A stretch of DNA of 64,000 nt from Mustelus asterias (taxonomy: Eukaryota). Of this stretch, positions 8,327-54,037 are shown piece by piece. The stretch spans positions 59,458,001-59,522,000 of the forward strand of contig NC_135804.1 of NCBI RefSeq assembly GCF_964213995.1, written 5' to 3'. The notes beneath the pieces are model-generated. The model made no database searches. It saw nothing but the letters and a program-made list of their open reading frames with translations, and was not told where the DNA came from. A program made the position numbers and the translations under genes. Each line of letters starts with the position of its first letter. Within the stretch, counting starts at the first letter, position 1.

Positions 8327-8932
8327 GTAAGTGACTGAAATGACCGGGAACCTCAAGCACGCTGTTTTGCCATTGTTTTATTGTGCTGCCTTTGATGTTG
8401 TAAAGCTCTGTGCACAACTGCTAATTACGCAGCGGAATGTGACATTTTATTTGCTGTGTTATTCCAAACTGCTGGAAATACTCAGCAATTCAGGGCATGT
8501 CTGCGAAGAGAGAGGCAAAGTTAAAGTCTCAGGTCTATCAACTTTTTGAGTAAAATGTTACCTGATTCATCTCAAAATGTAATTTTTACATCAGGTTTCT
8601 TAGTCCGAGGTTGGCCCACCGTAGTCTCGATTCCCCAGCCAGAGGAAACAACCTCGCCGAATCTATCCTGTCAAGCACATTTACAATCTTGAATGTTCCA
8701 ATGACATCACTTCATTCTAACTTTTTCGTTTTTCGCCTGTATGAGCTTCCATAAATCTATATAACCTTGCTTTTATTACCGGTGTCGGACAGATTGTTTT
8801 TCTCTTGCGGACGCTGGAGACTGATCTCTTCTTACTAACATAAAGGGAAGCGAATGAGGATATAATTCATTTCTCATTCCTTCCGCTGAACATTTCTTCA
8901 CCAACCTGACTTTCCCCATGTTTTGTTCGCAG

Positions 8933-9244
8933 CTGCACCAACTCCGTTGAAGATTTTCGCTAAGCATCCCGCAAGCAACTCAACTACGTTCCTGACTCTT
9001 GTGTGTCAGACGGCTGGATTTTACCCGGGTGATTTGACCCTCCTTTGGTATAAAAATGGCGTGAACATCGCAACAGTGGGAAATCCGATCAAACAGCAGA
9101 ACGCAGAAGGACTGTATGAAGTTTTCAGCTCTTTTGAAGAGCCGCACTTTGTGCGGAACGAAGCTGTTTACATCTGTTTGGTAATTCACATCTCCCTCCG
9201 GACTCCCGCCATTGCCATTCACACCGTTACCAACTCCTGCTCAG
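8933..9244 (+). CDS. Gene A exon 3, Ig C1-set domain
   Basis: Acceptor ttttgttcgcag; TLVCQTAGFYP..L.WYKNG..GLYEVFS..YICLVIHISL; donor CAG/GTATGT; 312 nt, phase 1/1. Confidence 0.95.
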
Positions 9245-10559
9245 GTATGTTGCCGACAGGCCAAGAATCAATCTCCAAATTCAGTAAGGGGCATTTCTTG
9301 GAGTTTATTGGCATTGGCAATGATGCGTCTAATTTTAAAATAATATCCCGAAATATCCAATCTAAGGAAATATTATGTTTTCATTCAAGATATATTGAGA
9401 CAAATATCTTGTCAAACCTAAGTAATTGTACTGACTTCCGACTGAGCGGTGTATTACAGCAGGTTCTTAATTGCTTGAAAATAAAAAAAAGAACAAGTGG
9501 GTTTTCTCTCCCATCCAATTATTTTACACTATGTACCTATTATTAGACATAGAGTTACTTCTTATTTTATTTTCCCAGCATTAGTTTTCCTCACACGATT
9601 TTACAGAAAATAAAGCGTCAGTTTTGTTTTATTGGCCTGATGTGAAAGTGTCAGAAGTTAGCCTTTTAGATAACTCCTATTGGGCCTGTTTCTCTAGAAA
9701 GGTAATTTCGACCCGTAACGTTAACTCTGTTTCCCTCCACAGATGCTGCCGGACCTGCAGCATTTTCTATTTTTGTTTTTCCTTATGCAGTGTTTTGGAG
9801 CGGGGAGGCATTTCATAAAATGCATTTCGACTTTAACTGTGATTTGCTTCCATTAAATGTAACTGAAACTCGTCTGATTAATGATAGCTATTTCCGTTTA
9901 ATTAATAAATAACCGAAATTTAATTTGAGGGTGAAAGGTAAACATTACTTTGACAGCGATCTCCTTTCCGATGTAGTGACCGTCTGCAGTTAATAAACTG
10001 CAGACAATTGAGCATTTATTTTGTTGAATTGAAAAAAAAGTACCCCTTTCAGCCTTGGCAAGTCCAAGTCTCTCTAATTTGCCGCGAATTAATCAAATAA
10101 GAGTGGAAGAGGCAAAGAAAATTGAAGTAGCAGAAAACGTCCTTCTGTCAAACGGAACGTTAACCCTCTCGCGCCAATGATTAGAACATCCGAAACTGGT
10201 AATCTCCCTGGCAGATAATTATGGCCTTGTGCCACTCTTTGTTAAAGTAAGTTACTTTTACTTGCAGCTTATGACGGTAAATGTCATGGCCCCCGGAGTT
10301 CTGGAGTTAAGTCTTTAATTAGAAATACTACATGTAAAATGATTGGGAGACAAAGATAATCCGGCTGCTCGTTTGTAGTTTTTCCACATCATATCTAGAA
10401 AAATGACTTAGGGTAATTTTTAAACGTCCTTCTCCTAGGGCTGCCGTACATAGCTGCTGTAAATATGAGCAGTAGTTTACCCAATCGATTATCGTGAGAG
10501 TCAAGAATAGGTAATGCAGAAACAAATTAAATCACAGACCCAACCATTTCTTCTTGCAG

Positions 10560-34248: not shown

Positions 34249-37200
34249 TCAGTACCACTTACCCGCCTGATCCCCATAACCCTTAATTCCCTTACCGATC
34301 AGGAATCCATCCATCCGCGCTTTAAACATATTCAGCGAGGTAGCCTCCACCACCTCAGTGGGCAGAGAATTCCAGAGGTTCACCACCCTCTGGGAGAAGA
34401 AGTTCCTCCTCAACTCTGTCTCAAACCGACCCCCCTTTATTTTGAGGCTGTGTCCTCTAGTTTTAACTTCCTTACTAAGTGGAAAGAATCTCTCCGCCTC
34501 CACCCTATCCAGCCCCCGCATTATCTTATAAGTCTCCATAAGATCCCCCCTCATCCTTCTAAACTCCAACGAGTACAAACCCAATCTCCTCAGCCTCTCC
34601 TCATAATCCAAACCCCTCATCTCCGGTATCAGCCTGGTGAACCTTCTCTGCACTCCCTCCAATGCCAATATATCCTTCCTCATATAAGGGGACCAATACT
34701 GCACACAGTATTCCAGCTGCGGCCTCACCAATGCCCTGTACAGGTGCATCAAGACATCCCTGCTTTTATATTCTATCCCCTTCGCAATATAGTCAACATC
34801 CCATTTGCCTTCTTGATCACCTGTTGTACCTGCAGACTGGGCTTTTGCGTCTCATGCACAAGGACCCCCAGGTCCCTTTGCACGGTAGCATGTTTTAATT
34901 TGTTTCCATTGAGATAGTAATCCCATTTGTTATTATTTCCTCCAAAGTGTATAACCTCGCATTTCTCAACGTTATACTCCATTTGCCATATCCTCGCCCA
35001 CTCACTCAGCCTGTCCAAATCTCTCTGCAGATCTTCTCCGTCCTCCACACGATTCACTTTTCCACTTATCTTTGTGTCGTCTGCAAACTTCGTTACCCTA
35101 CACTCCGTCCCCTCCTCCAGATCATCTATATAAATGGTAAACAGTTGCGGCCCGAGTACCGATCCCTGCGGCACGCCACTAGTTACCTTCCTCCAACCGG
35201 AAAAACACCCATTTATTCCGACTCTTTGCTTCCTGTCGGATAGCCAGTCCCCAATCCACTTTAACACACTACCCCCAACTCCGTGTGCCCTAATCTTCTT
35301 CAGCAGCCTTTTATGGGGCACCTTATCAAACGCCTTTTGGAAATCCAAAAACACCGCATCCACCGATTCTCCTCCATCAACCGCCCTAGTCACATCTTCA
35401 TAAAAATCCAACATGTTCGTCAAGCACGACTTTCCCCTCATGAATCCATGCTGCGTCTGATTGATCGAACCATTTCTATCCAGATGCCCTGCTATCTCCT
35501 CTTTAATAATGGATTCCAGCATTTTCCCTACTACAGACGTTAAGCTGACCGGCCTATAGTTACCCGCCTTTTGTCTCCTTCCTTTTTTAAACAGCGGCGT
35601 AACATTAGCCGTTTTCCAATCAACCGGCACTACCCCAGAATGCAACGAGTTTTGATAAATAATCACTAACGCATCCACTATTACCTCTGACATTTCTTTC
35701 AATACCCTGGGATGCATTCCATCCGGATCCGGGGACTTATCCACCTTCAGTCCCATTAGTCTACCCAGCACTGCCTCTCTGGTAACATTAATCGTATTAA
35801 GTATTTCTCCTGCTGCCAACCCTCTATCGTTAATATTTGGCAAACTATTTGTGTCCTCCACCGTGAAGACCGACACAAAAAACTTATTTAAAGACTCAGC
35901 CGTATCCTCATTTCCCACTATTAACTCCCCCCTCTCGTCCTCCAAGGGTCCAACATTCACTCTAGCCACTCTATTCCTTTTTATATATTTGTAAAAACTT
36001 TTACTATCATTTTTTATATTAATTGCTAGCCTAGCTTCATAGTCTATCCTTCCTTTCTTTATCGCTTTCTTAGTCTCTCTTTGTTGTTTCTTAAATTTTT
36101 CCCAATCACTTGTTTCTCCACTATTTTTGGCCACTCTGTACGCAGCTGTTTTTATTTTAATACTCTCCTTTATTTCCTTCGTTATCCACGGCTGGTTCTC
36201 CCTTTTCTTACAATCCTTGTTTTTTGCTGGAATATATTTTTGCTGAGAACTGAAAAGGATCTCCTTAAAAATCCTCCACTGTTCCTCAGCTATCCTACCT
36301 GCCAGCCTGCTCTCCCAGTCTACCTTAGCCAATTCATCCCTCATCCTATCATATTTCCCTCTGTTCAAACAGAGGACACTGGTTTGGGACCAAACTTTCT
36401 CCTCTTCCATCTGAATCAGAAATTCGACCATATTGTGGTCACTAGACCCAAGAGGATCCTTCACAATAAGATCCTTAATTCTACCTACCTCGTTACACAA
36501 TACCAGATCCAAAATAGCTCGTTCCCTCGTCGGTTCCGTAACATGCTGTTCAACGAAACTATCCCGACAGCATTCTAAGAACTCTTCCTCCATTCCACCC
36601 TTACTGACTTGAGTCTGCCAGTCAATGTCCATGTTGAAGTCCCCCATGATTATTGCCGTTCCGTTTTTACACGCATCCCTTATCTGCTTGTTTATAGCCC
36701 TCCCTACCTCAACATTATTATTTGGGGGCCTATATACCACACCTACTAGTGTCTTTCTCCCTCTACTATTCCTCATCTCTACCCATAATGATTCCACGTT
36801 TTGTTCCTCAGAGCCTATGTCATCCCTCAGTACTACCCTGATATTATCTCTTATTAATAGCGCGACCCCACCACCTTTTCCTTCCTGTCTATTCTTCCTA
36901 AACGCCTGATACCCCTGGATATTCATCTCCCAGTCCTGGTCACCTTTCAGCCACGTTTCTGTAATGGCCACTAGATCGTACCCACTTGTGCTGATTTGCA
37001 CCATCAACTCATTTACCTTGTTCCGAATGCTTCGTGCATTCAGGCAAAGTGTCCTTATTCCAGCTTTTATCTGGACCCGCTTTGATGAGTCGCGAACACC
37101 CTCTCCCTCTACTCCCTTATCTAAATTACCGCCTTCATTCACTTGCACCCTCTCCTCTACCATTAATTTTGTAATTCCCCTTACCCCTGCATCCTCCCCC

Positions 37201-37253
37201 CCATCAATTAGTTCCTTGATCCTAGTCAACTCTTCTAGCTCCCCTCCCCCCAA
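34249..37253 (-). CDS. CR1 ORF2p (APE endonuclease plus reverse transcriptase) with one 1-nt deletion near 34790
   Basis: [41 protein letters not shown]. The 826-aa and 167-aa ORFs join as ML(x)YIAKGIEYK if one base is restored. Confidence 0.92.
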
Positions 37254-37258
37254 CCTAT

Positions 37259-38197
37259 CTAGTTTAAATTCTCCCCAGTAGCCTTAGCCAACCTACCGGC
37301 CAGGATATTGGTCCCCGTGTGATTCAAGTTCCACCCGTTTTTTGTATACAGATCACCCCTGCCCCTAAAGAGGTCCCAATGGTCCAGGAACCTGAATCCC
37401 TGCCCCCTGCACCAGTCCCTCAGCCACACATTCATCCTCCACCTCACTCCATTCCTGCCCTTACCTTCCCGTGGCACAGGCAGTAATCCTGAGATTACTA
37501 CCTTTGCTTTCCTCTTTCTCAGCTGTCTCCCTAATTCCCTGTACTCCCTTTTCATGACCCCTTCTCCCTTCCTACCCACATCAGCGGTACCAATATGTAC
37601 CGCTACCTCAGGCTCCTCTCCCTCCCACCTCAGGATTTCCGGGACGCGACTAGTGACATCCTGGATCCCGGCCCCAGGGAGGCAGACCACCATGCGAGAC
37701 TCCCGCCTGCCTCCGCAGAAACGCCTGTCTGTCCCCTTCACCATCGAGTCCCCGATTAATACCGCCTTCCTCCTCTTTTCCTTAGCCCTCTGAGTTACAG
37801 GGCTGGACTCCACTGCGGAGACATGGCCACTGCTGCTTCCCCCAGGCGGGCTGTCCCCCCCAGCAGTACTCAAGCAGGAGTACTTGTTGTGTAGGGGCAA
37901 ATCCACTGGGGTGCTCTCAACCACCCTAGCCTTACCCTTCCTGGCCGTCACCCACTTGGCCTCCTCCCGTGGCCCTGGTGTGACCACCTGATGATAGCTC
38001 TTGTCTATCACCTCCTCATTCTCCCTCATCAGCCTAAGATCCTCGAGCTGCAGTTCCAGCTCCCTAACACGGTCCCTCAGGAACCGCAGCTCGACACACC
38101 CCTCACAGATGTGGATGTCCGGGAGGCCAGATGCCTCCAGGACCTCCCACATCCTACAGTGGGAACAGCACACTGGTTTCACACTCATACTGGACAC
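37259..38197 (-). CDS. CR1 ORF1p: zinc finger/leucine zipper plus SGNH esterase-like domain (312 aa)
   Basis: CSHC..HICEGC, LRDRVRELELQLEDL, LIGDSMV, VCLPGA, VHIGTAD, ISGLLP; uninterrupted. Confidence 0.93.
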   Translation of the reverse strand: MSSMSVKPVCCSHCRMWEVLEASGLPDIHICEGCVELRFLRDRVRELELQLEDLRLMRENEEVIDKSYHQVVTPGPREEAKWVTARKGKARVVESTPVDLPLHNKYSCLSTAGGDSPPGGSSSGHVSAVESSPVTQRAKEKRRKAVLIGDSMVKGTDRRFCGGRRESRMVVCLPGAGIQDVTSRVPEILRWEGEEPEVAVHIGTADVGRKGEGVMKREYRELGRQLRKRKAKVVISGLLPVPREGKGRNGVRWRMNVWLRDWCRGQGFRFLDHWDLFRGRGDLYTKNGWNLNHTGTNILAGRLAKATGENLN

Positions 38198-38362: not shown

Positions 38363-38704
38363 AAACCCTCCAAAAACTTCCCCAGGCCTCTGCTGGCCCG
38401 ACTTCCGGTTTTGAAAAAAACCTCCGATTTTAAACCCAAAATTAACTGAAAAAATAAATAATTAATTACAGTCAGAAAACCCAGTCTCTTACCCTCAGCC
38501 TGCTCCTGGGAACAATGAAGCTGAACCTCCAAGGTAAGCCCTTTTGAAACCCTCCAAAAACTTCCCCAGGCCCCTCCTGGCCCGACTTCCGGTTTTGAAA
38601 AAAACCTCCGATTTTAAACCCAAAATTAACTGAAAAAATAAATAATTAATTACAGTCAGAAAACCCAGTCTCTTACCCTCAGCCTGCTCCTGGGAACAAT
38701 GAAG
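38363..38704 (-). promoter_or_regulatory. CR1 5'UTR tandem monomers (184-bp period), putative internal promoter
   Basis: Near-identical blocks start at 38363 and 38547; each has CCGGAAGT (ETS consensus) on the element strand. Confidence 0.75.
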
Positions 38705-41850: not shown

Positions 41851-42024
41851 GGCTGGCTATGTAAATCGATTTCAACACATTGCATTAAATTCAGTGTAAA
41901 GGCACTTTAAAGTTGAAATTTCCCGTGACATTTCCGTGATTATTAATATGCATAAAACTTACGAAAAATTTCACTATGAATTCTACTATAGCTGGCTTTC
42001 CTTTTAGAACAGTTTTTCCCCTAC

Positions 42025-42336
42025 CTCGGTTCGGTTTAGGAATCGTGTACGCCACAATAGCCGGAGTCTTGAGGGCGACATGAGATACCCGGCATGTATA
42101 ATTGCCGTCTTTCGGTACAGGCTGAATCTCAACCAAAGTGCTGGAAACTTCATACAGTCCCTCTCTGTTCTGCACTTTACTGGTGTGTATTCCTGATGCA
42201 GTTTCGACGCCATTTTTATACCAAGTAAGGGTGAAATTTTCCGGATAAAATGCAGCCGTTTTACAAACGAGGGTCAGAGGCGCAGTCGAATTCCCTTCAG
42301 TTGTCCTGGAGACAAGATTCAGTGGGGTTGGGGCCG
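42025..42336 (-). CDS. Gene B exon 3, Ig C1-set domain
   Basis: AAPTPL..TLVCKTAAFYPENFTLTWYKNG..GLYEVSS..YTCRVSHVAL; 312 nt as in gene A; canonical AG/GT. Confidence 0.95.
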
Positions 42337-42784
42337 CTGCGGAGCAGAAAATGAACAACGTACTGTGCACGGCTTGGAGAAATTAAATATACTTTTGACG
42401 TTCGGTTAATATTCCTACTCACTGGCAATTCCTATTTCCTGTATTTGAATATTACACACAAGATCAGTGTAGATCTAATCTATATAAAGTCCGGCATTCG
42501 ATCAATTTCAATAATTTTTGAATTCCTTGTCGGACAAGGTGAAGTGATTTGCTAATCAACGTTCTGTTTAAATCGCCCAGAGAATTTAATCTTGATGAGA
42601 CAGTCGTCTCGCTGAGTTGTTACGTGTTTTATGTGCAACGACATGACAGAGTGACGAATAATATTCATATTCTTGATGATGAAATGAGCGTTTTAATGCT
42701 CCTTTAACGCCGCAGCTTGACATTTGATTAAACAAATAACTTTCAGTTGAATCTGCCGAAGTTTCACCAACACAGCCTCTCTGT

Positions 42785-42823: not shown

Positions 42824-43356
42824 ACAGCCTCTCTGTGTTGTTTATTTATTGGAAAATTAGTGAACTGGCAGCCATGTTGTGTCTGAAACTCCAATCTGTT
42901 GAGTAAATCGATTTGGTCAACAGTTAGACAAACATTGAGTATTTGAATACGCGCCGTATTGTTCTTTGAAATTTACTTTAAGGAATACTTGTATTCATGG
43001 ACTATTAAAACTAAGCCAAAAGCTTTGTATATTTATCTTGGGAATGGAGCATTAGTATAAAAGATTTTCTGTTAGTTTTACTTTAGGAATTCATTCTGAA
43101 TGCCGCCAATGTAAATCTGGTGCATAAATTGACTTTATCGTTGTGATGTGTTTGATAAATATTACTAATATATTCAGTACTCTCCGAGTGGCATTGCAGG
43201 TATAATTAGCACTTTAATGCAGAGGACGCGAATATACAACTAACTTATCGCGAAATATGTTCACAGACATGATTTCACTGACAGAAAGTATGCACATCCC
43301 CGATTTTTGTGTTTGATATATTATGGCGATCTCGCTCGCCTGTATTCCAATCTTAC

Positions 43357-43677
43357 CATGCACAATTAGATGTGATCCGGTTCCATTTCCTCGACCTACT
43401 CCCTGACGGATCACCGTACAGTGATAGATTCCAGAGTCTTGCACTGTCACATTTAGTAAGCGAAAGAAACCGCTCACTTTACTTTCCATACCGAACCTTT
43501 TTCTCTTGTCTGGGCTTGAATGCAGGAATTCATTCTCACCATGTTTCCACCATAACACCCGTATCCAGGCTTGGGATTGAAAAATGGGGAATATGCAGTA
43601 GAATGTGATGTTTCCCCCTCTGGATACAGTCGTTTCTTCTGGTGCTTGAGACACTTTGAACGAAGTGTGGTCCGCAG
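43357..43677 (-). CDS. Gene B exon 2, Ig V-set domain with germline J-like G strand
   Basis: VSQAP..FYC..VLWWKH..VQDSGIYHC..GNGTGSHLIV; 321 nt; 55/107 aa identical to the gene A V exon without gaps (manual count). Confidence 0.95.
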
Positions 43678-43844
43678 CTGTCAGAAAGATAGACAAACAC
43701 AGGTTAATTGCATTAGATACAACATAAAGGTAGAACAGTGAAAGCATGATCTAGAGAGAGGAAATAAGGTTCTTTAAATTAATATGAAAACTACTTCCTC
43801 GGAAGTTATTAATTAAAGTAACATGGCAAGTAAAAAACTAGTGC

Positions 43845-50595: not shown

Positions 50596-51813
50596 TTCTT
50601 CCAAAACTTGTCAGAAATGCCACAGAGACTTTCCATGTTTAATAAAACTGATGTGGCGCCGTTTCTCCCAAATAATCCACAATACACGTCTGCGCTTTGT
50701 TTTTATATGCTGGTACTTTGTTCCACAAACCAACGCGAGTAATACTTCCAGCAATTCTAGTTATAGGTGTTTTGCTTTTTTATGGGCTGTTACGATCTTC
50801 GAGTGAGCAATTTAAGTGTCAATCATGGCACAGTTGACAGCAGTTCCGCCAGTGATTCAGAAGGTTTTTAGTTCCAGTCGCACTCCAAATATCAAGGCTG
50901 ACACCACAGTGCACTTCTGAAGGAACGATTCACAGTTGTATCTGTCGCCTTTCGGACGCAACTTCATACTGCGGCCCCGCCTGCTGGAAGGCGCTCGGAA
51001 AGAATTCCCAAACATGATCTGATTCACCTCCCCTGCCCTAGGGAACGCAGCTGGCGGGAATGCCCGGAATGAAGTGACAAGTCGATCAAAAATGAAAGCA
51101 GGTAAGCATTTGGGCCTGCAGTTTACGCACCTCGTGGAAAGCATGACAAACGCTGCTCTCATCATTACGCAGCGGGCGAGGTACAACGTCCAGAGCACCA
51201 CCCTCAGCAAGATCCGATTACTTGAGGAGAGTCGGTTCAAGGAAATTGGCGGTGGTGACGTAATTTGTCTATGGAAATGAAGAACTGTACGCAGCCGGGA
51301 TCGACTTTTTGAATCTAACCTACCTTGGTTTCTTTATCTGAGTAAGGATGTCCTTGCCATAGCAGGAATGCATCTAAGGTTTACCAGGCTGATCCCTAGG
51401 ATGGCAGGTCTTCATATGAGGAGAGATTAAGTTGGATAGGATTATATTGACTGAGATAAGAAGTGAGAGAAGGGAAGTTTCACAGGGAAGGGAAGGGAAG
51501 AGAAGTGAGAGACGTTTCTCAGGGAAACTTATACAATTCTAACAGGGTTAGGCAGGGTAGATTGAGAAGGAATGTTCCAAATGGTGGCGGAGTCCAGAAC
51601 GAGGGGCCATAGTTTTAGGATGATGGTAAATCTTTTAGAACTGAGGTGAGAAGGAATTTCTTCACCCAGAGAGTAGCGAATGTGCGGAATTCACGAGCAC
51701 AGAAGGTAGGCGAGGCCAAAACGTTCTCTGATTTCAAAAACAAATTTCAGACAGCTCTGGGGACGAAAGGAATCAAGGGATATGGGGGAAGGTGGGATCA
51801 GGATACTGAATTC

Positions 51814-54037
51814 TGAAGAAGTGATTTAATTATTCATTTATTCATTTAAGGATATTCCTTGTATATTTCGCGGGCTTTTTTCAGGGTTTTGAATTGAGGA
51901 AGTGAGGTCAGCTGAAGGGGATTCTGGGAGGTTGAGTCTTAGTATAAAAGGCAGTTACCTGGGGGTTCGACCTCTTTGTTTGACTGGAGTGAGACTGGGG
52001 GAGAGAGTCTTAGCAGGAGTGCTGAGAGTAAGCAAAGAAGTGATTTAATTATTCATTTATTCATTTAAGGGTATTCCTTGTATATTTCGCGGGCTTTTTT
52101 CAGGGTTTGAATTGAGGAAGTGAGGTCAGCTGAAGGGGATTCTGGGAGGTTGAGTCTTAGTATAAAAGGCAGTTACCTGGGGTGTTCGCCTGCAGCATAA
52201 AAAGCCGGCTGCACTATACAGCGGGCAGCGTCGGGAGCGGGCAGTGGAGTGAGTGGGAAGCAGAGTGTGAACTATAAGGGCTTTGGCTCACAGGGCTTAG
52301 GCTGAAAGGGCGAGGCAAGGCTAGTTATTTTTTATCCAACCCTATAAAGGACAAGGGCAGGTATGAGTGATCGGCCAGTTCAGTGCTTCCGATGTGGGAT
52401 GTGGGAGTTCCTGCAAACACCTAGCTTCCCAGAGGTTCACATATGTGCCAGGTGCGTGGAACTGCAGCTCTTGAGGGACCGTGTCATGGAACTGGAGCTG
52501 CAGATCGCTGACCTTAGTCTAGTCAGGCAAAATGGGAGAACAATTGACAGGAGTTATAGGCAACTAGTTATACCGGGGCAAAGGGCGGAAGACACGTGGG
52601 TCACAGTTAGGAGGAGTAAAGGGCAGAAGGGTAAAGTACCAGGGAGTACTCCAGTGGTGGTCTCTCAAAATAGGAAGGGCTTGGTGACAGGTGTGAGAGG
52701 AGAGGGGAGTGAACAGTTAGAAGAGGGGTCACCTGTGGTTGTCCCACTCCAAAACAGGTATATTGTTTTGGATAGTGTGGAGGAGTGTGCCTCTCCAGTG
52801 GGAAGACACAGTGACCAGGTCACTGGCACACAGTCAGGCTCTGTGGCCCGGCAAGGGAAGAGAGGGGTTAGGAGAGCGATAGTGGTGGGGGATGCATCAG
52901 TTAGAGGCACAGACAGGCGATTCTGTGGGTGCGAACGGGACTCCAGGATGGTAGTCTGCCTACCTGGTGCTGGGGTCACGGATGTCTCCGAGCGGATAGG
53001 AGGCATATTAAAAGGGGAAGATAAAGAAACGGAGGTCATTATACACATTGGTGGAAATGACGTAGATAGGAAGAGTAGGGGGATCCTAAGAGAGCAATTC
53101 AGGGAGTTGGAAAATAGGTTAAAAAGTAGGGTCACTAGGGTGGCCATCTCTGGGCTGCTCCCAATGCCTCGTGCCAGTGAGGCTAAGAATAGGGAGTTGG
53201 TACAAATGAATGCCTGGCTAAAGGACTGGTCCAGGAGGGAGGGCTTCATTTTCCTAGATCAATGGGAAGTTTTCAGGAGTGGATGGCACCTGTACAAGAG
53301 GGAGGGGTCACAACTAAGTTGGAAGGGTACAAATATCCTGGCTGGGAGCTTTGCTAGTGCAGTTCAGGGGGGTTTAAACTAGCATGGCAGGGGGGTGGGG
53401 ATCAAAATATTAGTTCTATAAGTGTGGAGGCTGGGGACGAGCTTGGGGCTGGGACAAGGCTGGCAAAGAAGAAGAGCACTCTGGGGGAGGACGACCTCAC
53501 TGGGCCTGGAGGTCTGGAGTGCTTATACTTCAATGCAAGGAGCGTAGCAGGCTTCATTCTATGATCATCTTGCTGGTGCCAGTACAGAGCGAGACTGCGG
53601 ATAGTTGGGAACCTGTCTCGGGGGCAGGGAATTCAGATGGTGTTCGTAAAGCAGAAGTGGAAATGAATAGGGTTGGGAAGCATTTTCTGATCAGGGCCAG
53701 TGTGATCTCCTGGACTCGTTTCGATTGCCACAGGGGGTCGGAGAGGAATTTCCCAGATTTTTTTCCCCCATATTGGCCCTGGGGTTTTCACTTTGGGTTT
53801 TCGCCTCTCCCTGGAGATCACATGGTCTGGAATGGGGGGGTGGGGGTGAGTTAATAGGTTGTGATGAAGAAAGCATCGTAGCTGTGAGGGACAGCTCGGT
53901 GGATAGGATATTAGGATGTAGATAGGCTGGAAAATTGGGCGGGGATCCTGGATTCAGGATTCAATCCTGGACCGGGGAGCGGCGCGGGCTTGGAGGGCCG
54001 AAGGGCCTGTTCCTGTGCTGTATTGTTCTTAAAAAAA
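51814..54037 (+). mobile_element. Internally deleted ORF1-only CR1 (~2.2 kb)
   Basis: 5'UTR tandem repeat (219-bp period, 51816/52035), intact ORF1, ~57 codons of the ORF2 frame, then the 3'UTR cassette and tail; TSD AATTC at 51809-51813 and 54038-54042. Confidence 0.9.
52363..53382 (+). CDS. CR1 ORF1p (zinc finger/leucine zipper plus SGNH esterase-like domain, 339 aa)
   Basis: CFRC..HICARC, VVGDASV, VCLPGA, HIGGND; clearly homologous to 37259-38197. Confidence 0.93.
   Translation: MSDRPVQCFRCGMWEFLQTPSFPEVHICARCVELQLLRDRVMELELQIADLSLVRQNGRTIDRSYRQLVIPGQRAEDTWVTVRRSKGQKGKVPGSTPVVVSQNRKGLVTGVRGEGSEQLEEGSPVVVPLQNRYIVLDSVEECASPVGRHSDQVTGTQSGSVARQGKRGVRRAIVVGDASVRGTDRRFCGCERDSRMVVCLPGAGVTDVSERIGGILKGEDKETEVIIHIGGNDVDRKSRGILREQFRELENRLKSRVTRVAISGLLPMPRASEAKNRELVQMNAWLKDWSRREGFIFLDQWEVFRSGWHLYKREGSQLSWKGTNILAGSFASAVQGGLN

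Follow-up and report, generated by a model that had tools for sequence, protein, structure and literature searches.

Programmed -1 ribosomal frameshifting at the slippery heptamer U_UUA_AAC is well known in viruses, and this heptamer is among the shiftiest on mammalian ribosomes (PMC5009743). How the second open reading frame (ORF2) of long interspersed nuclear elements (LINEs) is translated has been called an open question, for which reinitiation is the default answer, taken from L1 and SART1 (PMC3894237, PMC2881922, PMC5009743). In Dictyostelium TRE5-A and TRE3-A, according to a review whose passage on them names neither a shift site nor a stimulator, ORF2 needs a -1 frameshift; like CR1, these are non-LTR (long terminal repeat) retrotransposons with an apurinic/apyrimidinic endonuclease (APE), but they are amoebal and target tRNA genes (PMC5911963). 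In most vertebrates the retrotransposons are dominated by CR1-group elements, which account for 22-34% of shark and ray genomes (PMC13343379). Here we describe the ORF1/ORF2 junction of CR1-type LINEs in a stretch of 64,000 nucleotides (nt) from the shark Mustelus asterias (NC_135804.1, positions 59,458,001 to 59,522,000), which we call the window. It contains two such elements, A and B. In both of them the heptamer stands in the ORF1 frame, directly before the stop, and is followed by a G-rich core. Frameshifting at this site probably gives an ORF1-ORF2 fusion in these elements.

The shark junction resembles those of coronaviruses such as infectious bronchitis virus (IBV) and of retroviral gag-pol: The in-phase heptamer is identical, and an abundant upstream structural protein is combined with a rare polymerase in the -1 frame (PMC5009743). 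It differs in having no conserved stem or pseudoknot, in its stop directly after the heptamer and in its host, a non-LTR retrotransposon. CR1-group LINEs of the esterase type, such as ZfL2-1 (PDB 4C1B), have an SGNH esterase in ORF1, and an APE endonuclease and a reverse transcriptase (RT) in ORF2, as we find here (PMC3905857; PMC13343379). The accessible text of a 2026 survey of vertebrate CR1-group elements makes no mention of overlap, translation, start codon or frameshift (PMC13343379). Nothing on this site stands in the accessible parts of PMC11835228, PMC5006619, PMC4255032 and PMC3905857, and CR1 is absent from those of PMC5009743. Among the papers listed for frameshifting in CR1 and other non-LTR elements in full-text searches, we have found no description of the site; Kapitonov and Jurka 2003, the 1997 chicken and turtle CR1 papers, the SART1 paper or Repbase reports may mention one.

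The features of both elements at and around the junction are the following, given as positions in the window:

53370-53401, + strand: ORF1/ORF2 junction of the lineage B copy, GGT TTA AAC TAG CAT GG CA GGGGGG T GGGG A.
53373-53379, + strand: slippery heptamer U_UUA_AAC (TTTAAAC), which reads X_XXY_YYZ in the ORF1 frame.
53380-53382, + strand: ORF1 stop directly 3' of the heptamer, TAG in this copy and TAG, TAA or TGA among lineages.
53390-53400, + strand: G core GGGGGG T GGGG, after a 10-nt spacer from the heptamer; its conserved form is G-GGG-RNW-GGG, and it is a candidate frameshift stimulator.
52363-53382, + strand: ORF1 of lineage B, 339 amino acids (aa), with a Cys-rich N-terminus, an SGNH/GDSL esterase (PF13472, E 6.5e-8) and the C-terminus ...GGLN*.
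53355-53357, + strand: upstream closure of the -1 frame in the lineage B copy.
53384-53413, + strand: out-of-frame (+1) reading frame of nine codons, from the ATG at 53384.
53373-53564, + strand: remnant of the -1 frame without AUG, made of an unalignable linker, the first endonuclease motif (YFNARS), four codons of a spliced-on 3' exon and a stop.
37241-37268, - strand: the corresponding signal of lineage A, with heptamer (37262-37268), stop (37259-37261) and G core (37241-37251).
37259-38188, - strand: ORF1 of element A, 309 aa, esterase.
34773-37268, - strand: ORF2 of element A, APE endonuclease and RT, lying in the -1 frame, which stays open over 831 codons counted from the heptamer.

The domains are those of the CR1 group (CR1/L2), although no named CR1 or L2 reference sequence came up in the searches: an esterase-type ORF1, whose profile matches PDB 4C1B at E 1.1e-34, and, in element A, an ORF2 with APE endonuclease and RT (PF14529, PF03372, PF00078). 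CR1-group 3' ends are short tandem repeats and not poly(A). We have found 3' ends of the (TTCTATG)n type in lineages A, A3, F and G; at the 3' end of B in the window there is a short run of A. A first-pass annotation of this DNA had reported the same heptamer, stop, spacer and G-run pattern in both elements (53373-53400 and 37268-37241), with ORF2 in the -1 frame of both and the ATG at 53384 in the wrong frame. All this has been confirmed, the ATG opening the +1 frame for nine codons before a stop. We reject this short frame as a functional feature, since an ATG at that place is kept in only 3 of the 16 representatives described below. The statement that ORF2 has no in-frame AUG is correct for the remnant in the window copy of B, not for element A, where the first in-frame Met is codon 35 and the endonuclease motif is codon 75. 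The second element had also been taken as an independent replication within the window, which must be given up: Lineages share an ancestor, the ORF1 proteins of A and B are 44% identical, and both are divergent relatives and not elements of separate origin. The sequence TTTAAACTAG occurs twice in the window, against 0.19 expected, and two occurrences were reached in 1 of 100 shuffles. Compared with its relatives L032-L046 (window positions 37020-37480), element A is 91-94% identical in ORF1, and the shared sequence extends only to just past the G core. Beyond it a different ORF2 linker is found, a swap of ORF1 and ORF2 modules at the junction.

The window copy of lineage B cannot make the ORF2 protein (ORF2p), so the signal has been judged in its relatives. 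We have used 13 representatives, one natural copy for each lineage with an open esterase domain. Lineages A4, B3 and H, which have a broken ORF1, were added for the survey of AUG codons only, giving 16. The esterases of the 13 representatives are 48-90% identical, and their four-fold sites have a median identity of 45%. The TTA and AAC codons of the heptamer are invariant in all of them. Its first T is kept in 12, though the codon to which it belongs stands for six different residues (G, D, N, S, T, R). The stop is TAG in eight cases, TAA in four and TGA in one, with four changes on the tree. As a control we have taken codons of invariant residues in the same domain, where only one of 28 columns is invariant (four-fold 1/10, two-fold 0/6, six-fold 0/12) and the mean number of parsimony changes is 3.5, 2.3 and 4.3, respectively. 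The fixed codons are not the only ones used: of 187 Leu codons 25 are TTA, and of 74 Asn codons 30 are AAC. In 11 of the 13 representatives closure of the -1 frame comes five codons upstream (one codon in one, 37 in another), and no Met is found in that stretch in any of the 13. Because of this closure, the heptamer lies within the only short interval that permits entry into ORF2 by a -1 shift.

The site combines an in-phase X_XXY_YYZ heptamer, an ORF2 open in the -1 frame from this heptamer and nucleotide conservation beyond what the amino acids need, all of them expected in programmed -1 frameshifting. A constraint at the RNA level on the slippery site, already proposed in the first-pass annotation, is well supported by this comparison, and the signal is, on the same evidence, a real and strongly conserved signal of the recoding type.

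The 22-letter pattern obtained from the two window copies has 11,889 matches in the genome, against one for the reversed control. This pattern is circular, and its matches mark a feature of a repeat family, not a function. Unselected ORF1 ends have been located by tblastn, using queries without the last five residues, in loci which are top hits of similarity searches and in four arbitrary 200-kb stretches (800 kb). Similarity loci are only partly blind, as the original queries held the site as a small part. Heptamer and stop are exact in 148 of the 166 copies which were not picked by the motif (TAG 104, TAA 25, TGA 19). The remaining 18 include 16 with a one-base difference or a lost stop, and two with no site at the anchor. 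In the arbitrary DNA seven of 11 hits are exact, one has one mismatch and three have no site at the anchor; of these last, one is a split hit belonging to a copy in the count, another has a one-mismatch site which a G expansion has displaced, and the third is truncated. Absence from other intact copies had been named beforehand as an outcome which would speak against the signal; the site is present in them.

Close homologues outside this genome number 41, of which 10 are truncated or run on. Among the other 31, which reach the C-terminal helix, 28 end in LN, and the preceding residue always has an NNT codon. Named homologues are from rays, skates and sharks. Three gene models, two of them from a stingray, read ORF1 into FKL-x-x-x-G (FKL-x-x-Q-G-A-G in the stingray). 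The stingray models (P0025, P0052) fuse CR1 ORF1 and ORF2, and one of them is named hydroxyacid oxidase 2. Contigs of four public runs have no listed variants at 53373-53381 or 53384-53404, against 25 in the flanks, a weak comparison which is biased to similar sequence. Distant esterase proteins similar to ORF1 (P0042-P0051, 24-35% identity) end in FFR, VGF, HPFL and NDLN, which are slippery-compatible residues. A shark-type CR1 ORF1 (P0032) is filed in NCBI under Pseudomonas aeruginosa, in a 4-kb contig, and is likely a contamination. Two loci from scans of other taxa (L299, L300) have been discarded, as they are esterases in other contexts.

The G core is also conserved beyond the needs of the protein. 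In the 13 representatives the preceding G is always present (its codon is TTG, CAG or GGG), the first GGG is found in 12 and the second in all 13, with a middle codon for Gly, Ala, Asp or Ser. Among control Gly columns, only one of seven in ORF1 and none of four in ORF2 is invariant, and GGG makes up about a third of Gly codons. Free third positions of Gly codons, the explanation singled out in advance as the one which would remove the G tract from consideration, do not account for it. The pattern is found at none of 5762 other ORF2 codon positions. The longer form GG-NN-G6-N-G4 holds in lineages A and B, not in D, E and F; what is common to all is two G runs. Linkers are alignable only to about 25 nt. 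We have also noted that in a very young lineage (L239-L268, 2619 exact copies) the G core is a run of ten G, whose length breaks ORF2 in 12 of 30 sampled copies; these breaks may be due to RT slippage or to errors of long-read assembly.

A canonical stem-loop or pseudoknot, 5-9 nt downstream of the heptamer, is not found, and we infer that the site works like a -1 frameshift site with a non-canonical stimulator. That this stimulator is the G core seems to us somewhat favoured. It could act as a two-tier or intermolecular RNA G-quadruplex, which would make this a natural site stimulated by such structures. In reporters, G-quadruplexes placed after UUUAAAC stimulate -1 shifting, up to about 7%; these synthetic sequences have four G3 runs and a reported optimum at 6-8 nt, while the shark elements also place G-rich RNA after this heptamer, with two runs and a core which starts at 10 nt (PMC3919603). 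ViennaRNA predicts a G-quadruplex in 10 of the 13 representatives, and a score of the G4Hunter type is at least 1.2 in 10 of 13. Lineages D, E and F have no such prediction. Within 42 nt all 13 have two or three G3 runs, and four are found in none. The conserved canonical G-quadruplex which had been suggested is thereby not recovered, as only two G3 runs are conserved, and we regard this mode of action as unlikely.

The other candidate is a bound protein. The nsp2 -1/-2 site of PRRSV, the virus of the porcine reproductive and respiratory syndrome, has no discernible RNA structure and has a short conserved motif, rich in a single base, about 11 nt after the slippery site; this motif is C-rich and is bound by nsp1beta and PCBP, whereas the shark motif is G-rich and has no known binding protein (PMC7939443). 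As in arteriviruses, the conserved motif of the shark elements is unstructured and follows the shift site at a distance of about 10-11 nt. We infer from this geometry, a 10-nt spacer and an unstructured motif, that binding of a protein fits better than a G-quadruplex. Stimulation through a bound protein is a tentative proposal.

Translation of these elements might proceed as follows. Most ribosomes would stop at the end of ORF1 and release the ORF1 protein (ORF1p). A minority would slip the Leu- and Asn-tRNAs back by one base, from UUA AAC to UUU AAA, and would read the next codon as Leu. The product would be ...GLN-L-x-W-Q-G-G-G, followed by a variable linker of 39-72 residues, the endonuclease and the RT, with a length of about 1280 aa. 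With less confidence, we suggest that a pause could come from slow termination at the adjacent stop together with the G core 10 nt downstream, most likely through a protein bound to the G tract, a host factor or ORF1p itself, rather than through a fixed RNA fold. Stop loss is rare, with 8 copies against 2619 in one lineage, which is consistent with a need for an excess of free ORF1p. One natural copy (L321, G000:C71) has lost the stop and has one extra G, so that ORF1 and ORF2 form a single open frame of 1280 codons. In spite of this copy, the rarity of stop loss leads us to reject a constitutive fusion as the normal form. Two other long frames which might be taken for fusions have also been rejected, they correspond to upstream read-in.

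Several observations weigh against frameshifting, or reduce the weight of the evidence for it. Because the lineages are relatives and exchange sequence by recombination near the junction, the 13 representatives amount to fewer than 13 independent trials. One of them (L311) has C at the first position of the heptamer; this is probably a private change, as the copy of that lineage selected by the motif has T. In some small groups the copies have TTCAAAC or TTTAAAT in common. The Gly codon before the catalytic D-S motif of the esterase is GGG in all 13, the only invariant control codon; it may correspond to chance or to a second RNA element. No stem is shared in the 90 nt after the stop (z from -2.1 to +1.1, 60 shuffles each, one of 13 below -2), so the conserved pseudoknot or stem considered at first pass finds no confirmation, and in 53300-53560 nothing in Rfam matches with an E of 1 or less. 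Nor have we found a long-range partner of the G core common to the 13, whose best partners stand at different places; this is a weak test, as several of the regions overrun the element or belong to rearranged copies. Without a conserved stem or a shared long-range partner, the efficiency of shifting could be low. Scans of metagenome, viral and prokaryote contigs gave no usable DNA outside elements like those of cartilaginous fishes. Finally, the linker contains an in-frame Met in 25 of the 114 open copies (lineages A and G, with most of A3), UAAUG with its AUG in the ORF2 frame is found in three of the 16 representatives (B2, B3 and D), a stop-start overlap of the SART1 type, and the AUG-independence of L1 ORF2 weakens any argument from missing AUG codons (PMC5009743).

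These last points are those which favour termination followed by reinitiation, where ribosomes would resume translation in the -1 frame, from an AUG which overlaps or lies close by, or from a non-AUG codon, and the conserved motifs would tether the ribosome. Such a mechanism has been reported for SART1 and L1, whose RNA is likewise bicistronic, with translation of ORF1 required for ORF2; their ORF2p is a separate protein, while in the shark elements the slippery heptamer is invariant and the AUG is optional (PMC2881922; PMC3894237). In 89 of the 114 copies whose frame is open between the site and the first endonuclease motif, no in-frame Met precedes this motif. Two elements are fully open, over 975 and 968 codons, and have their first Met 31 and 79 codons after the motif; in lineage G it comes before it. 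The Asn of the motif aligns with Asn14 of the L1 endonuclease, weakly (E 0.5), and that Asn is needed for activity. An overlapping stop-start, as in SART1, is not conserved, being limited to the three representatives mentioned. The codon at the AUG position takes eight values among 13 representatives, including GAT, GAA, GTA and GTT, and for this reason we take the AUG as incidental. Reinitiation also leaves unexplained why the fixed bases form an X_XXY_YYZ heptamer in the ORF1 phase. Unlike the ribosome-tethering motifs of caliciviruses, which are upstream of the stop, the G core is found downstream of it. Reinitiation is thus improbable as a general explanation, although it may contribute in lineages with a linker Met or UAAUG.

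The G core might also have nothing to do with translation, and control splicing instead. This possibility comes from the window copy of lineage B:

52081-54030, + strand: CR1-type LINE of lineage B, a spliced retrocopy with a partial 5' untranslated region (UTR), ORF1, the junction, 59 codons of the ORF2 frame and the 3' UTR.
53550-53551, + strand: splice junction, where a CAG|GT donor is joined to an AAG|G acceptor in the 3' UTR, preceded by a branch point and a pyrimidine tract; 2806 nt have been removed.

In blastn, this copy is 96.5% identical to an unspliced sibling (L302) over 1472 nt and then 95.2% over 484 nt of 3' UTR. The jump to the 3' UTR comes just after the first endonuclease motif, and the ORF2 frame ends shortly past FNARSVAG. 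The window copy lacks nearly all of ORF2 because it is a retrocopy of spliced RNA: It has kept the recoding signal and has lost ORF2. On its 5' side the copy probably continues upstream across a duplicated monomer at about 51862-51969; tandemly duplicated monomers are present in the 5' UTR of both elements, at 51808-52200 and, on the - strand, at 38400-38700. The exact spliced 25-mer has 47 copies in the genome and the unspliced 23-mer has 1540. Spliced and unspliced copies of lineage B show one difference in 305 upstream columns, and the 47 spliced copies may come from a single founder or from repeated splicing, both fit. Retrotransposed spliced LINE RNAs are known in L1 as SpIREs, where splicing takes place within the 5' UTR or into ORF1, while in lineage B ORF1 is whole and nearly all of ORF2 is removed (PMC5860796).

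With a donor about 170 nt downstream and 47 spliced retrocopies, the G core could be a silencer of the hnRNP F/H type which limits the removal of ORF2. The core keeps its position with respect to the heptamer, while the length of the linker leading to the donor region ranges from 39 to 72 codons, and a GGTAAR donor is found at that place in only two of the 13 readable representatives, which makes a role in splicing very unlikely. A 3' splice site at the stop has also been rejected, as lineages with TAA and TGA have no AG there. The last alternative, protein constraint with shared ancestry and recombination, would keep LN* and the Gly-rich start of the linker as amino acids without any RNA signal; there is a shared ancestor, modules have been swapped near the junction (element A matches its relatives over query bases 1-269 only) and the region is purine-rich, but neighbouring codons change freely (7, 9, 6 and 8 parsimony changes), unlike block copying, synonymous controls vary in 27 of 28 columns and ORF2s without AUG would be left untranslated, so this explanation, already disfavoured, has hardly any likelihood.

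Outside the LINEs, the window has reading frames which look by eye like C1- and V-type exons of host genes of the immunoglobulin superfamily, at 8890-9546 on the + strand and at 41891-42382 and 43214-43750 on the - strand.

The signal takes about 30 nt and fits a standard reporter, so the question of frameshifting can be tested directly. Splicing in lineage B could give an mRNA coding only for ORF1, which would tune the ratio of ORF1 to ORF2. If frameshifting takes place, the CR1 ORF2p would be an ORF1-ORF2 fusion similar to Gag-Pol, and annotated ORF2 starts would be wrong. In that case a G motif without structure would also add a new type to the natural stimulators of frameshifting. It is possible, although we say so with reserve, that LINEs of the CR1 group with an esterase use a -1 shift like that of retroviruses, driven not by a pseudoknot but by a protein (possibly ORF1p) on a motif with two G runs 10 nt downstream, which would tie the RT covalently to ORF1p. 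An animal genome would then encode a G-rich counterpart of the protein-driven frameshifting of arteriviruses, and esterase LINEs of further animals, with ORF1 ends compatible with slippage, may share it.

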